From the NCBI GenBank assembly GCA_046497275.1, contig JAWOFX010000002.1, positions 8,960-40,959 of the forward strand: a stretch of DNA of 32,000 bases, written 5' to 3'. The position numbers were made by a program, and so were the translations under genes. This document shows, in pieces, positions 5,076 through 11,151 of the stretch; position 1 is the stretch's first letter, and the number at the start of each line of letters is the position of its first letter. This stretch comes from Promethearchaeia archaeon (GTDB taxonomy: Archaea; Asgardarchaeota; Lokiarchaeia; Sigyniarchaeales; SOKP01). Below the pieces are notes generated by a model. The model made no database searches and was not told where the DNA came from. It was given only the letters and a program-made list of their open reading frames with translations.

Positions 5076-6089
5076 TCAATCTTTGTATTTTTCTGTAAGA
5101 AGTCGTATAGCATCAGCCATATCATGTAAAGCTTTTTTTTTCTGAGTAGGATTTAATTCCATAAATTCGTTTTCAAAACCAGATTTTATCTCATTTGGAG
5201 ATGCTAAGCTGAGATATTTATCTACTATAAGTTTAGTAATATAATCATCATAATCTTTCAAAACTTTCTGAAGCTTATTATTCTCCCTTATTTCATCCCA
5301 TAATTCCAATGTCTCTAAAGATCGAATGCCAATATCAAATCGAAACCAACTTATCGGAAACAATCTTTCTCGTTCGATACCTGATTCTATAATTGTGATA
5401 CAATCTTGATCAATGTAAAATTCGGGAATTTCATCTTCTTTAAAAACAATTCTATCATTCATCATAAATAGATTTGCTGATTTATTTGATGAGACTACCA
5501 GACCTGTGGCAAAACCTTTAGCAAATCGCAATTTATCTGCGATATCTTCTATTGTGGTTCCTGGTATTTTTAATTTATTTTTGTTACGCCCTTGAATTGT
5601 TATATTGATATAATCTCTTTTTTCTCCACTTTTAACTAATTTTGGAAATAAATTTTGATCTCTACTTTTTCTATGAGCATCCATTAAAGTATTTAATAAT
5701 TCTCTATCAAGTTCTAATCCAGGTATAACAGTATTCTGATTCATAAACGCATCCACTTCAAAATCCCCAATACCATAAAATAATTTTTTTTCAGCAATGA
5801 TCTGTCGAAGACTGTTAACTATTGAGGTTACGAGAGCATCAGGATCATCTTGTATTGATTGATATTCTTTTGTTGTAAAGGTATCGATTTGATCTTCTAA
5901 GCCCTCGATATTCTTATAGAATTCGGCCCAACTCATTTCAGTATAGATGGTTCCAATATTATAGAGATTGTGGTCTTTATCTAAACAAAATATATTTTTG
6001 GAACCTCCTAATTCAACTCCTGATTTTGAACCAGAAGCTAAAAAAGCAGATGGAGGATTGTAAAACTTTAGATAAAGACTGGAAATCAT
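5076..6089 (-). CDS. Hypothetical protein (paralogue of 6182..7183)
   Basis: 337-aa ORF sharing FYNPP, LASGSK..GGSK, GTIYTEMSWAEFYK, DFEVDAF, GFATG and PISWFR.D.GI with its neighbour. Confidence 0.8.
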   Translation of the reverse strand: MISSLYLKFYNPPSAFLASGSKSGVELGGSKNIFCLDKDHNLYNIGTIYTEMSWAEFYKNIEGLEDQIDTFTTKEYQSIQDDPDALVTSIVNSLRQIIAEKKLFYGIGDFEVDAFMNQNTVIPGLELDRELLNTLMDAHRKSRDQNLFPKLVKSGEKRDYINITIQGRNKNKLKIPGTTIEDIADKLRFAKGFATGLVVSSNKSANLFMMNDRIVFKEDEIPEFYIDQDCITIIESGIERERLFPISWFRFDIGIRSLETLELWDEIRENNKLQKVLKDYDDYITKLIVDKYLSLASPNEIKSGFENEFMELNPTQKKKALHDMADAIRLLTEKYKD

Positions 6090-6181: not shown

Positions 6182-7183
6182 TTATTTTTTCTTCACATCT
6201 TCATGCAAAATTTTTATTGCAATTTGCAAATCTTTCAGCACTTGTTTTCTCTCTTGAGGTGTCATCTGGAAAAAATCATCTTGGATATTGAATCCCAGTC
6301 CGCTGCTGGAAGCTAATTTTTCGTATTTTTTAAATATCATTTCTAAAAGATAATGATCATATTTAGCAATAGCTATTTGCAGTTTATCCATTTCCTTTAT
6401 TTTATCCCATAAATTGAGAGTTTCTAGCGCATCTATTCCTAAATCAATACGGAACCAGCTTATAGGCGTAAGAATTTCATTTTCAATTCCATCCTCAATT
6501 AAACGAATATTTTCTTTATCTAAATATAATTTCCGAACTTTCTCTTCTTTAAACTTGATATTATCATTCATTATATAGAAATTAGCTAATATTTGAGTTG
6601 TACAAACAATTCCAGTAGCAAAACCGCTCACAGCCCTCAACTGATTCGCTAATTCTTCCAAGTCAGATCCTTGAAATATTAATTTATCTCTTTTTTCTCC
6701 ATAGAATTTTATTTGTATTTTTGGTTTATTCCCAGAATCTCTTAAGATTTTAGGAAATAATATCTTATCTCTTGTCGTTCTGTGTGCTTTCATTAATTTA
6801 TTTATTACACTTGGAGGAATTTTAAGACCAGGAATAATGGTATTTTCATTTAAAAATGCATCTACTTCAAAATCTAATATACCGTAAAACAATCTATCAT
6901 TTTTAATAATCTTATTAATGCAATGAGAAATTGAATTTACAAGAGCTTCAGGATCATCACTGATAGATTCATATTCCTTTTGAGTAAAGCTATCGATTAT
7001 ATCCTCCAAACCTTCATCTTTATAAAATTCAGCCCAAGACATTTCTGTATATATAGTTCCTTCAGAATAGAGATTTCGATCTTCATCTATACTTACAATT
7101 AGTTTAGAACCACCTATTTCTAAGCCTTCCTTTGACCCAGATGCTAAAAGTGCTCGTGGGGGATTATAAAAATCTAACAGCAA
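6182..7183 (-). CDS. Hypothetical protein (paralogue of 5076..6089)
   Basis: 333-aa ORF with TTG start, colinear with the downstream paralogue along its whole length. Confidence 0.8.
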   Translation of the reverse strand: MLLDFYNPPRALLASGSKEGLEIGGSKLIVSIDEDRNLYSEGTIYTEMSWAEFYKDEGLEDIIDSFTQKEYESISDDPEALVNSISHCINKIIKNDRLFYGILDFEVDAFLNENTIIPGLKIPPSVINKLMKAHRTTRDKILFPKILRDSGNKPKIQIKFYGEKRDKLIFQGSDLEELANQLRAVSGFATGIVCTTQILANFYIMNDNIKFKEEKVRKLYLDKENIRLIEDGIENEILTPISWFRIDLGIDALETLNLWDKIKEMDKLQIAIAKYDHYLLEMIFKKYEKLASSSGLGFNIQDDFFQMTPQERKQVLKDLQIAIKILHEDVKKK

Positions 7184-7279
7184 TGAATTAACCTTAAATT
7201 CATAATTGAAATTAAATATTTAGAATATTGAATATCCTTTAAGATCATTTTAGAAAACAAATTTATATAATTAATTAAA

Positions 7280-7370
7280 CGATGCATTTTTAAGAGTGCA
7301 CATCTCTGCAACCAGCAACACGTTCGTGAATGCGGTATTAGGTAGTACTACTACACATAGGCAACACGAG
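7280..7370 (-). ncRNA. Candidate omegaRNA scaffold (visible structured part) / transposon right-end region of the TnpB locus
   Basis: GC-richer island inside an AT-rich intergenic region. There is a long imperfect hairpin at 7324-7369 (UCGUG/CACGA, UGC/GCA, UAU/AUA, GUAG/CUAC) across the tnpB stop codon and a second bulged hairpin at 7281-7304. TnpB omegaRNAs are known to overlap the 3' end of the gene. Confidence 0.4.
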
Positions 7371-9879
7371 TCATAGCTAAAAACCTTTTTGGACTCATTT
7401 GATACCTTTGTGGTTTAATCTTGCTTTTGTTTAACCTTTCTTTTCTTTTTAACTCTTTTGTGGGAATTCCATTTGAAGGGCAAAATCTAATCGGCGGGGT
7501 GGTGATAAATTTGGTAACTTTTTGCCTTGCTTGATTGGGTAGGCTTCGGCGAGGATCGGAAATCAAGCGTAGGTTGTAGGCGATGGCTTTATGGGAAAAG
7601 AGCTCTGGATGTTTTTTTCTGCCGATATTAGCAGCACCGTTGATATCTCCGTGAATGATTTTTCCGTTCCTTGTCCGAAACAGCCCATTATGTTTTACTT
7701 TATTTTGGGTGAATCTGCGTAATCCAGCATATTCATCATTTGGTTTTTTCCCAATGGATTCTTCATCAATAAATGAACATTTGCTGGTATACCATTCGGT
7801 TGTGTAATCCACTTTAATTCCAAAATAAATAGCTTCTTCCTGAATCCGTTCAAACATTCGGCTAAATGGAAGCGAAACGAATAAATCTCTGGTTATCTTC
7901 TTGAGTTTAACAGTATTGGTTTTCCATCCCGTGTTATAGCCAATTGTAATCGTCCCTACTCCATAGTATAGGCAATAATACATAAGCTTCTTGGCGATCT
8001 TGTTAATGGCATCCCGCTTCACTCTGTTATATTTGTCCCATAACTCATCTATTTTCAATTTGACAGATGCTAAATATTTCCGTAAATTTTGAACTGACCA
8101 CCCAGAAATTGTTTCCAAAATTCGTATTTTACGATTCCTTTTGTCCCGCAAATAGCGAGAATAATTACGCAAGAGAGAATTTTTCTCACGAGGGGCAATC
8201 TCCATCAAAATAATCTTTCTGAGCTTATTAAAAATCCCTTTATAAACACTTTCTCCGTCGCTCTCAGCAAGTTTTCTGAAATTGTCCCAATTCGTATTTT
8301 TTGCAGTCCTAAAAAATGATCTGGAACGAAAACATCCAAGAGAAGAATTCGTATCCAATCGTGAAAGATCAGAAAACTTTTTAAAAACATACAAAATCAT
8401 TTTTTTCAAGTTCTCGAACTCGTCGTGATAGGTGTGAATTCGAGAATCGATAATTGAGTCTAATGGTTGAATAAATTTATTTTTTTCATATCGCTCTAGC
8501 AAATCGGCAATTACATCAGCTTTCCGTTGCAGTGAGGGAACTCTATGATTTATCCTATAATTCCATTTTTTTATTGCTGAACCGCTAAAAATAGGAAATT
8601 TCGCACCAAAATTTTTAAAGACAGTAAGAAAATTATTCACTCCGAAGTCAATGGAAATGGCTCTGTTAGGGTTTTGCTCGTAATTATTGAGATCAAGACC
8701 ATATTCTCTGGCTCGTTGTGGTTTCGTTTTGTAATAATGAATGTTAAATGAGTAATTTCTCCCGCAAGGTATGATCTCCACAAACCCACCGTTTTTGAAC
8801 AATTGAGATAATACCCTTGCTCTGACTCGTATTCGGGGGATTAAATGATCGTGTGAGGGTGGCACATACATATAACACGTACGTCTTTTATTATTGATGG
8901 CGTCTTTAAGGCTTTCTAGATTCTTCCTATGTTCGAGTCTCTGCTTTGTATAGATTAATTTCCATTGTCCCACTCGTTCTCCCTTTACTTTTTTGCCAAT
9001 GTAGCGGGGTAGACCAGGTCGTGACGGCTTCTGACCGCGTCGATTTTCTGCGGTATGTTTCCAGTTTTTTAGACTTTCATAATATTTCTCTATTAACTTT
9101 AGGTGACTCAAAAAATTCTCACACACAGCTATAACTATCTGTTGGGCACATATAGTATATCCGATATCTTTGTAAGAATCCATAAATTTCATTATCGTTG
9201 GAACAGTACTACTTAAGGCTCGTAATCCATTTTCAAAAATTCCGTTCAAAATCTTTATAGCCGCCTTTTTTGTGTCAGTTGGATAACCGGATTCTCTTAT
9301 GGTTTTATAAAATTTGTTCTCTATACTTTTACGATATAGGCTTTTCTTCTCAGGATCTTTCGTATTATGAAAAAAATAATATTGGCGCAATAAGTACAAT
9401 GTATCATTCGCGAGTGCTCGAGAACGGTCAGAAAGGCGATTTAACTCTTTTAAATCAAATTTAGACCGAGAAATCCGGATTGACTCGGTGGAATAACGCC
9501 CTTTTTCGTCAATCATCGATTGCATTTCCTTAATGTGCTTTTGGTTTATTACAAAAGATCTCGAAGTAAGCTGCTTATTATCAATAGGTTTTGGGTTGAT
9601 ATGATCTTTATGGATTCCTACATTGGAATTCTTCGAAATATCTTCGGCAGAATTCTTATTCTTCTCTTCGTTTAAATTTGGCAATAATAATTGGGAATTA
9701 TTAGTTTTTTCTTGTTTAATTTTCTCAAATAAAGGATAAAAAGGGACCCCATAATTTCTCATCAGGATTTTATTTATCGCATCCAACCCTAACACAATAT
9801 CGGTTTTAAAAGTCTGCGTCATATTGGTTTTAAGTAAGAAATTGTCCTTATAGGCTTGATGATTTACATAAAATTCCAC
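7351..9879 (-). CDS. tnpB: Large TnpB-family RNA-guided endonuclease (rearranged RuvC-II)
   Basis: RuvC-I SIDFGVNN (D411), ITIGYNTGWK with Gly at the canonical RuvC-II site (G647), alternative Glu in TTEWYTSKCS (E695), RuvC-III HGDINGAANI (D745). The N-terminal TnpB motifs ELNRLS...LANDTLYLLRQYYF and AQQ...RPGLPRY are present. GTG start. Confidence 0.9.
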   Translation of the reverse strand: MEFYVNHQAYKDNFLLKTNMTQTFKTDIVLGLDAINKILMRNYGVPFYPLFEKIKQEKTNNSQLLLPNLNEEKNKNSAEDISKNSNVGIHKDHINPKPIDNKQLTSRSFVINQKHIKEMQSMIDEKGRYSTESIRISRSKFDLKELNRLSDRSRALANDTLYLLRQYYFFHNTKDPEKKSLYRKSIENKFYKTIRESGYPTDTKKAAIKILNGIFENGLRALSSTVPTIMKFMDSYKDIGYTICAQQIVIAVCENFLSHLKLIEKYYESLKNWKHTAENRRGQKPSRPGLPRYIGKKVKGERVGQWKLIYTKQRLEHRKNLESLKDAINNKRRTCYMYVPPSHDHLIPRIRVRARVLSQLFKNGGFVEIIPCGRNYSFNIHYYKTKPQRAREYGLDLNNYEQNPNRAISIDFGVNNFLTVFKNFGAKFPIFSGSAIKKWNYRINHRVPSLQRKADVIADLLERYEKNKFIQPLDSIIDSRIHTYHDEFENLKKMILYVFKKFSDLSRLDTNSSLGCFRSRSFFRTAKNTNWDNFRKLAESDGESVYKGIFNKLRKIILMEIAPREKNSLLRNYSRYLRDKRNRKIRILETISGWSVQNLRKYLASVKLKIDELWDKYNRVKRDAINKIAKKLMYYCLYYGVGTITIGYNTGWKTNTVKLKKITRDLFVSLPFSRMFERIQEEAIYFGIKVDYTTEWYTSKCSFIDEESIGKKPNDEYAGLRRFTQNKVKHNGLFRTRNGKIIHGDINGAANIGRKKHPELFSHKAIAYNLRLISDPRRSLPNQARQKVTKFITTPPIRFCPSNGIPTKELKRKERLNKSKIKPQRYQMSPKRFLAMTRVAYV

Positions 9880-9948
9880 ATCAGAAATAAACTCACCTTG
9901 CTTTGAGATGTTTAAGATTTTGTATCTCGATTATCTTTGAGGGAAAAA

Positions 9949-11151
9949 TTAATTAATAGGAAGCTTAAAGGAGAAAGTAGAACCTAATCTAAGGCCTTCA
10001 GATTTGGCAAAGATCTCCCCATCATGCAAATTTATGATTTCTTTCGAAATATGAAGCCCTAACCCGGAACCATTCATTTTGATATCTAATAAATCATTCG
10101 ATTTTTCTATATCTGGAAATTTATTAAATACTTTTTCAAGTTGATTTTGAGTAAGGCCAATTCCCGAATCTTTAATATTAAAAAACGCATAGGTTCCCTC
10201 AGTTTTAATTATTATTTCAATATCGCCGTTAGGAGGTGTAAATTTTATTGCATTTGAAAGTAAATTTATTATTACTCTCTCTATCTTTTGAGCATCGATA
10301 TTTAATATTAATGTTTTTGGGAAAATTGTATTTACCATTAAATTTTTCTCATCAATTTGATATTTGACGTCTCTAAGACAATTCTTTACTAAACAAATAA
10401 AGTCTTGCTTTTTCTTTTCTATTTTAAAATTATTTGATTCTAATTTGGATATATCCAATAAGTTCCCAACCAACTTTATAAGTCTTTCACTGGAATTATT
10501 TATTATTTCTAAAAGATCTTTAAAAACAGAAATATCTTCAAATTTATTTTTATTATAAAAATCTAATAGGAGTTGACTTGCTCCATATAAGGAAGTGATT
10601 GGAGTCTTTAATTCATGAGTAGCAATATTTAAGAAGTTTTTTTGCAATTCTTCGATCTTTTTTAATTTGCTAATTTCTCTTTTGAGTAAATCTTCCAATT
10701 CTATCCGATTTAAATTTTCCTCATAATTTCCTATAATATCTTTGCTTTTTATTCTGGTCCCTAGACTAAGAGATTCTTGAAGATTTATTTCGTCAATAAT
10801 TATTTGGATAAATGATTGATTAATCAATTTTATTTGAGACATATAAAGGTTAATTAATTTTACCTCTTGATTTATTTCTATTGAGAACCCCTTTTTACCA
10901 AAAATATCTCCTTTAGCTACTTGATTTAACTGTTCTTCAAGTATGATGCTTAAATCTTCAGGAATTAATGAATTGAGGAAAATATTTTTGGTTATCACAT
11001 CATCATAATTTAAATTAAAAAAAATTTGTGCTTTTTCATTTAAATATTGAATTTTTCCTGAAAAATCTAATAGAAAAAGAGAATATGGTAACTTATTGAA
11101 TTTAATCTTCAATTCTTCATATTTTGGTATATTATTATCAAAACTAATCAT
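9949..11151 (-). CDS. PAS-domain sensor histidine kinase (soluble)
   Basis: N-terminal PAS-like segment (LPYSLFLLDFSGKIQYLNEKA), H-box THELKTPI, N-box NLLSNAIKF, G1 DSGIG, G2 GSGLGL. Confidence 0.9.
   Translation of the reverse strand: MISFDNNIPKYEELKIKFNKLPYSLFLLDFSGKIQYLNEKAQIFFNLNYDDVITKNIFLNSLIPEDLSIILEEQLNQVAKGDIFGKKGFSIEINQEVKLINLYMSQIKLINQSFIQIIIDEINLQESLSLGTRIKSKDIIGNYEENLNRIELEDLLKREISKLKKIEELQKNFLNIATHELKTPITSLYGASQLLLDFYNKNKFEDISVFKDLLEIINNSSERLIKLVGNLLDISKLESNNFKIEKKKQDFICLVKNCLRDVKYQIDEKNLMVNTIFPKTLILNIDAQKIERVIINLLSNAIKFTPPNGDIEIIIKTEGTYAFFNIKDSGIGLTQNQLEKVFNKFPDIEKSNDLLDIKMNGSGLGLHISKEIINLHDGEIFAKSEGLRLGSTFSFKLPIN

Follow-up and report, generated by a model that had tools for sequence, protein, structure and literature searches.

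TnpBs with a non-acidic residue in RuvC-II and an alternative glutamate about 45 residues away were described as TnpB2 by Jiang et al., and the TnpB2 of Thermoplasma volcanium (TvTnpB) is an active RNA-guided nuclease that depends on a target-adjacent motif (TAM; PMC10530073). Altae-Tran et al. (2023) reported RIIr-5 as a major clade in which this Glu is replaced by Gly (PMC10691335). Fanzors and the cyanobacterial pro-Fanzors, from which Fanzors are considered to originate, carry a DPG motif in RuvC-I and an alternative Glu that precedes a CxxC zinc finger by six residues, and occur in an IS607 context (Yoon et al.; PMC10711439). The TnpB2/RIIr group is marked by a non-acidic residue, Gly or Pro, in place of the canonical RuvC-II Glu, and by an alternative Glu about 45 residues downstream and six residues before the first zinc-finger Cys (PMC10530073, PMC10711439). 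Here, we analysed an open reading frame (ORF) on the minus strand, at positions 7351-9879, of a 32,000-nt stretch of contig JAWOFX010000002.1 (positions 8,960 to 40,959; hereafter the window), assigned to a Promethearchaeia archaeon. We think it likely, with a probability of roughly two in three, that this ORF belongs to a repeated element found specifically in Lokiarchaeota-type (Promethearchaeota) archaea, of which it is a copy truncated at the 5' end, and that its product is an enlarged alternative-glutamate (TnpB2/RIIr) TnpB, with a complete module at residues ~108-842, predicted to act as an RNA-guided nuclease.

A sequence-only reading of this DNA had proposed D411, G647, E695 (48 residues downstream of G647) and D745 as the residues of the RuvC site, and had noted the lack of a CxxC zinc finger, with C701 as the only candidate Cys. 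A script returned every one of these residues, and its list of the cysteines in the ORF (244, 253, 335, 372, 516, 636, 701 and 800) bore out the absence of CxxC, C701 being the sole Cys between RuvC-II and RuvC-III (residues 696-745). The gene and its predicted catalytic positions are as follows:

7351..9879, minus strand: reported ORF of 842 aa with a GTG start and the stop codon TAG at 7351-7353
7354..9525, minus strand: likely functional TnpB module, M119 to V842, 724 aa (P0002), from the comparison of copies and an AlphaFold2 (AF2) model
8647..8649, minus strand: RuvC-I Asp D411, motif ISIDFGVNN (D-Phi-G type), from script and alignment
7939..7941, minus strand: G647 at the canonical RuvC-II Glu position, motif TITIGYNTGWK, at the end of strand beta-4, from script, alignment, profile and model
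7795..7797, minus strand: alternative RuvC-II Glu E695, motif TTEWYTSKC, directly after beta-5 and six residues before C701, from script, alignment and model
7645..7647, minus strand: RuvC-III Asp D745, motif HGDINGAANI, from script and alignment

The protein passed the cut-offs of Pfam OrfB_IS605 (PF01385; 39.7 bits vs 30.5) and TIGR01766 (37.8 vs 32); it remained below those of the TNB domain (PF07282; 23.8 vs 26.3) and of NCBIfam guided_TnpB (NF040570; 69.4 vs 100). An exhaustive HMMER search yielded 1,926 representative proteins at E < 1e-3, only 14 of them below 1e-30. From these matches, 112 relatives were aligned (alignment A2), and D411, G647, E695 and D745 (residues 293, 529, 577 and 627 in P0002 numbering) were invariant in 112/112 sequences. 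Not only these but all residues that are nearly invariant among the relatives are kept in the window copy. The AF2 model of P0002, built on A2, reached a predicted local distance difference test score (pLDDT) of 88.5 and a predicted template modelling score (pTM) of 0.81, with the first strand at P0002 residues 9-19. It places D411 on beta-1, G647 at the end of beta-4, E695 right after beta-5 and D745 at the opening of the RuvC-III helix, and the beta-5/E695 topology is the one published for the alternative-glutamate rearrangement (PMC10691335). The parts follow the usual TnpB order of WED, REC, RuvC and a Cys-poor TNB, and the best structural matches were ISDra2 TnpB (8exa, Z 17.9), Cas12f (16.1), mimivirus Fanzor2 (16.0) and ISFba1 TnpB (15.9); Foldseek was also run. 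The match to ISDra2 TnpB aligned 328/341 residues over model residues 9-647, so that the model shows the fold of the TnpB superfamily. A single-sequence phmmer search against the PDB gave no match. A profile of the family, searched against PDB sequences, reached Cas12f (8j3r, E 4e-19) and TnpB, with G647 aligning at the Cas12f RuvC-II strand. These data support placing the ORF in the TnpB superfamily, as a member that has Gly where RuvC-II canonically carries Glu and that conserves an alternative Glu. The feature is thus a real and intact-looking gene for an enlarged, predicted TnpB2-type nuclease in a 5'-truncated element copy.

As for the closest described proteins, both marks of the TnpB2/RIIr group were found, namely G647 at the canonical Glu position and an invariant E695 in the pattern E-x5-C701. 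The 48-residue spacing lies in the ~45-48 range of the group, in which the alternative Glu also follows beta-5 and precedes the position of the first zinc-finger Cys by six residues. Further likenesses are the D-Phi-G motif of RuvC-I, an ADxN-like RuvC-III (GDING here, NADVNG in the subfamily consensus) and the location of the gene within ~70 nt of a conserved element end. In contrast, the window protein is larger by about 300 residues, made up of a helical insertion of ~150 aa, small insertions in REC/WED and a basic tail of ~80 aa, and it lacks the C4 zinc finger; no TnpA was found in its genome, and its relatives carry, as an N-terminal fusion, a region of ~1,080 aa that includes a retropepsin-like domain. 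A match to this protein at E <= 1e-20 was present in 30/151 sampled genomes of the phylum, nearly always covering the RuvC half only (about P0002 residues 476-650) in open frames of ~400 aa; the ~400-aa relatives that were aligned all have Gly and the alternative Glu. Because TnpB2/RIIr proteins are published and such matches are this frequent, the predicted rearranged RuvC site is of a known, common type, the rearrangement having been described before (PMC10530073; RIIr-5, PMC10691335).

The sequence-only reading had also called the site "Fanzor/TnpB2-type". The TnpB2/RIIr half of this label holds, with the four residues invariant in the 112 relatives, but a specific affinity to Fanzors does not. 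RuvC-I reads D411-F-G and not DPG, the alternative Glu is followed by C701 alone within residues 696-745 instead of CxxC...CxxC, no Fanzor chain was reached by the family profile search of PDB sequences, and the host is archaeal rather than a eukaryote, a giant virus or a cyanobacterium. The protein does resemble Fanzor1/Fanzor2 (PDB 9b0l, 9cf0) and pro-Fanzors in the position of the alternative Glu, in its larger size by insertions and in its structural match to Fanzor2 (Z 16.0), yet it also differs from them in having no serine-recombinase/IS607 context. The expectation of an Asgard host was borne out by five actin-family genes (lokiactin-type, up to 444 bits) and two Snf7 (ESCRT-III) genes in the genome, and by nearest homologues in metagenome-assembled genomes (MAGs) named Lokiarchaeota or Promethearchaeota at NCBI. 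An Asgard host lends no weight to a direct connection with the Fanzors of eukaryotes. With ISDra2 TnpB (PDB 8exa/8h1j), its best structural match, the protein shares the order of domains and the expectation of an ωRNA at the 3' end and right end, whereas ISDra2 TnpB is 408 aa long, carries the canonical Glu of RuvC-II and a zinc finger, and has a Y1 TnpA as its partner. Similarity to Cas12f and other small type V effectors is seen at the level of sequence profiles, and in carrying a helical insertion where Cas12 has REC2 the protein is reminiscent of the path of accretion from TnpB to Cas12. Unlike these effectors, however, the element is multi-copy with transposon-like ends; there is no CRISPR array in the window and no Cas1 gene in the genome, so neither an array nor cas adaptation genes place it with Cas12.

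The enlargement amounts to about 312 residues relative to TnpBs of the same subfamily of at most 470 aa. Apart from several smaller REC/WED insertions of 10-14 aa each, it resides in two parts:

8074..8517, minus strand: helical insertion of ~150 aa (residues 455-602) that separates the RuvC-I strands from the RuvC-II strand, from alignment and model
7354..7578, minus strand: basic C-terminal tail, residues 768-842, found in the Lokiarchaeota-type clade only, with the frame open in all copies

The insertion occupies the Cas12 REC2 position; it is absent from the same-subfamily TnpBs of at most 470 aa and present in large relatives. The tail measures 65-80 aa, and the large relatives share the main insertion without it. 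In a FastTree phylogeny on 402 shared columns, the Lokiarchaeota-type clade groups with the other large forms (Shimodaira-Hasegawa-like support 88), and this group is nested in a clade (support 95) whose members are mostly mid-sized and large; because of this grouping, the expansion may have had a single origin. The ratio of nonsynonymous to synonymous substitution (dN/dS) was 0.20-0.27 for the core, 0.23-0.33 for the insertion and 0.18-0.39 for the tail. These low values argue that all three parts are maintained as protein, and support purifying selection on the copies (dN/dS 0.2-0.3). Two observations touch on these regions. The tail-coding region contains, just upstream of the terminal hairpin described below, 2.2 copies of a 16-nt unit (window 7413-7448; Tandem Repeats Finder score 51). 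In the tree, the large TnpBs P0053, from a Promethearchaeota MAG (MGV9141356.1), and P0064, from a Kosmotogaceae MAG (MFO7882959.1), are close sisters with end branches of 0.18 and 0.23. With one archaeal and one bacterial label, this sisterhood points to cross-domain transfer or a binning error.

The length of 842 aa requires qualification. The ORF does have this length and the coordinates given, on the minus strand, but residues 1-107 are what is left of another domain, encoded by a larger fusion gene. The region common to all other genomic copies begins at about residue 108, and the GTG, which is the first in-frame start, follows an in-frame TAA within a decayed homologous stretch; the earliest ATG is M20 (residues checked by script). 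Because most other copies share only residues ~108-842, 842 aa is not the size of the functional TnpB: as judged from the copies, the module is about 725-735 aa, and the larger figure is misleading. The upstream stretch is the following:

9559..9948, minus strand: decayed C-terminal half of a retropepsin-like domain, with a low-complexity linker, corresponding to about residues 938-1070 of the relative P0187

This remnant lacks the D-S-G catalytic motif, starting about 16-43 residues past it, and adjoins the stop codon (9949-9951) of a histidine-kinase gene. As it begins past the motif, holds the TAA and abuts this stop codon, residues 1-107 are best described as a decayed leftover of a retropepsin-like domain and linker, outside the predicted TnpB. 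Within residues 1-107 themselves, neither a D-[ST]-G motif nor a family score above cut-off was found for the retropepsins (peptidase A2).

The ORF is not a lone effector. At least eight copies in the genome (3.85 Mb, 188 contigs, 98.9% complete) are nearly full and show 71-82% identity at the protein level; fragments also occur, and the window protein is one of about nine copies in all. The DNA shared with all copies extends from window position 7282 to about 9549. Every copy in this genome, and likewise each of 11 loci from metagenomes or MAGs, has an exact 3' boundary: the element terminates in ...CAGAGATGTGCACTCTTAAAAATGCAT, and unrelated sequence follows. This end lies 69 nt beyond the stop codon, and two features are assigned to it:

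7282..7412, minus strand: candidate ωRNA scaffold and right end, from conservation; the 69-nt non-coding tail ends in ...CTCTTAAAAATGCAT, with a sharp boundary at 7282
7262..7281, minus strand: candidate guide position in the flank, minus-strand sequence CGTTTAATTAATTATATAAA, unique to the window copy; the guide role is inferred from the published TnpB mechanism

Between copies, identity was 85.6% in the 69-nt tail and 84% in the terminal hairpin, as compared to 74% in the adjacent coding sequence. The conserved hairpin spans the last 20 codons (7354-7412), and tail and hairpin together lie where the ωRNA and right end of a TnpB are expected; both are intact to the last base in the window copy. 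On the reading we prefer, the transcript of an ωRNA would cover the last ~60 nt of the ORF and the 69-nt right end and run on into the flank. TnpB would bind it and cut double-stranded DNA matching the flank-derived guide, next to a TAM, and such cutting would help the element to be retained or to home, a role shown for ISDra2 TnpB and T. volcanium TnpB2. The ancestor would have been a ~1,800-aa fusion gene encoding an N-module, then an aspartyl protease, then TnpB, which is intact in related metagenomic contigs.

Further features were seen elsewhere in the genome and in the window. Right-end fragments without a TnpB body occur on contigs C115 (3726 and 6273) and C185 (19262 and 21592), and are candidate orphan ωRNA regions; the end at C115:3726 is followed, in the flank, by a 23-nt tandem duplication (TCCAATTCCTTTAGATTCTAGAT, followed by TCCAATTCC...). 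Directly downstream of the right end of the window copy lie two tandem paralogous ORFs of 337 and 333 aa (5076-6089 and 6182-7183, both minus strand), with 67% nt identity over 673 nt and no Pfam match.

Several results weigh against the interpretation preferred here. RNAalifold retrieved 26 well-kept pairs, none with compensatory double changes, and the single-sequence fold of the window RNA was no stabler than that of shuffles (minimum free energy z -0.53). A search of Rfam gave two chance-level matches only and no ωRNA family. Because this structural evidence is weak, we infer an ωRNA at the 3' end of the element from position and conservation only. Y1 TnpA (PF01797), serine recombinase (PF00239) and Cas1 (PF01867) were not found in the genome. 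Solo TnpBs are common, so that a missing transposase is compatible with membership of the TnpBs. The 5' ends of the copies are ragged and nested and the 3' ends sharp, a pattern that does not fit classical IS200/IS605 peel-and-paste transposition; because of these ragged ends, a TAM could not be derived. Finally, no promoter was identified for the window copy and its start codon is uncertain, and the copy may be expressed by read-through from the histidine-kinase gene.

In an explanation that we consider unlikely yet deserving of attention, the window copy is a fossil, truncated, promoter-less and unexpressed, with a frame left open through youth or chance, and any function resides in other copies or in full-length fusions. 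The in-frame TAA left in the remnant after 5' truncation and the lack of any ATG ahead of M20 agree with it, as does the existence of fragmentary and stop-containing copies on C115, C133 and C185, and dN/dS compares lineages and thus cannot show selection on the window copy itself. However, the frame of the window copy is open throughout its 724-842 codons at ~30% G+C, where stops arise easily. Its catalytic and nearly invariant residues are all kept, and so are the right end and the candidate ωRNA region. The histidine-kinase gene lies 70 nt upstream of the ORF on the same strand, so read-through transcription is possible.

It is less probable still that the family has been domesticated, that is, that it is no transposon passenger but a nuclease or regulator guided by RNA that the host recruited, which would be maintained as several copies and would have spread through recombination or duplication instead of transposition. 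In its favour, none of the three enzymes searched for was found, the copies are old (synonymous divergence, dS, of 0.5-1.0 between them) with ragged 5' ends, and a dS of 0.105 in the remnant between C25 and C108, vs 0.73 in the body, suggests recombination between copies. In contrast, the flank of each copy differs right after the identical terminal sequence, copies break the assembly at contig ends and no conserved neighbouring gene was seen, all of which is typical of mobile DNA. Exapted TnpBs in the literature are, moreover, mostly single-copy and often catalytically inactive (PMC10691335). The low remnant dS was not confined to that pair: between the window remnant (9559-9879) and C108 or L013-L021 it was 0.10-0.42, much lower in every pair than in the TnpB body (0.6-0.8), which suggests recombination between copies or an extra constraint at the nucleotide level. 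The 5' ends also include another variant, on G000 contigs C92, C71, C133, C134, C116 and C18 and upstream of loci L006 and L008, with a conserved upstream region of ~500-800 nt. This region contains a TATA-like box and a divergent small ORF of ~90-112 aa without a Pfam match; contigs C116 and C18 end inside it.

The reading of the window copy as a 5'-truncated derivative draws on its longer relatives. A search for longer proteins in related metagenomes retrieved P0187 (1,819 aa, on a 45-kb contig of the European Nucleotide Archive, ENA), and the window protein (P0001) is colinear with its residues 965-1814 at 73% identity. In the metagenomic loci L014, L015 and L017 the TnpB frame stays open over 1,224 aa or more, as far as the fetched DNA extends. 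The upstream piece of the window copy and of the C108 copy is related to a section of a 1,751-aa ORF on contig C111, and the C92, C118 and C71 copies, of 759-774 aa, have a different short N-terminus (MDNRDLRLSC...). Residues ~900-1010 of P0187 resemble aspartyl proteases of the retroviral type, and D922 and G924 are invariant in eight full-length sequences. The Pfam RVP score of the full-length relatives was below the cut-off (18.5 vs 20.7), with RVP, Asp_protease_2 and gag-asp_proteas placed at the same position, just under threshold, in P0188, P0044 and P0047. Language-model look-alikes of this region were aspartyl proteases at ~0.9, which we take as a lead only. In P0044 (1,806 aa), a distant relative at 27-34% identity, N-module, protease and TnpB follow one another in the same order, and the fusion is therefore old and conserved.

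An assembly chimera, which the sequence-only reading had named among the outcomes that would undo it, was rejected as extremely improbable: the MAG is in 188 contigs and the repeat family breaks contigs, so repeat mis-assembly might have joined a retropepsin-like N-terminus to a TnpB body, but the same junction recurs in independent assemblies, in C108, in the metagenome loci L013-L017 of the Joint Genome Institute (JGI), in the 45-kb ENA contig with P0187 and in P0044 and P0047, which are only very distantly related.

The N-module of the fusion protein had no Pfam match and no usable match in the ESM Atlas, and its AF2 model on an 8-sequence alignment was unusable (pLDDT 36.8). The 1,751-aa ORF mentioned above (P0188; G000 contig C111:36754-42028, locus L022:3756-9008, minus strand) shares with P0187 the ~1,050-aa N-module and retropepsin-like domain at 57% identity, and has orthologues in P0189 (1,749 aa) and P0190 (1,661 aa). 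Its C-terminal part of ~700 aa differs from TnpB and gave weak Pfam matches of the helix-turn-helix type, so that one N-module is paired with alternative C-terminal modules. An HNH-like motif (HHID...N...NH) read by eye in the C-terminus of this C111 paralogue was unsupported by Pfam, and we make no claim for it. The N-module is a candidate for the means by which the element spreads. Tentatively, and as a possibility well short of even odds, the native full-length form might be a ~1,800-aa polyprotein composed of a ~900-aa N-module, a retroviral-type aspartyl protease and a C-terminal TnpB. It would represent an undescribed kind of Asgard mobile element, in which the protease frees the predicted RNA-guided nuclease and the N-module supplies the transposition function, and of which the window copy would be a 5'-truncated derivative. 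No description of a protease-TnpB fusion was found in the literature searched. This proposal concerns DNA that lies mostly outside the window, and we offer it as a lead only.

What is new here is thus not the rearranged RuvC site, which is already published. The data point instead to a CRISPR-less TnpB lineage that would have independently gained a helical domain at the REC2 position and a basic tail, that is, to growth toward the size of Cas12 outside CRISPR, and to a new scaffold for a guided nuclease. In the relatives of this protein, TnpB is fused in frame to a large N-terminal region that includes a retropepsin-like domain, an arrangement kept down to ~27% identity. If it is true that the fusion is processed, this would be a case of polyprotein-style expression of a prokaryotic RNA-guided nuclease, and a new transposition enzyme may hide in that region.

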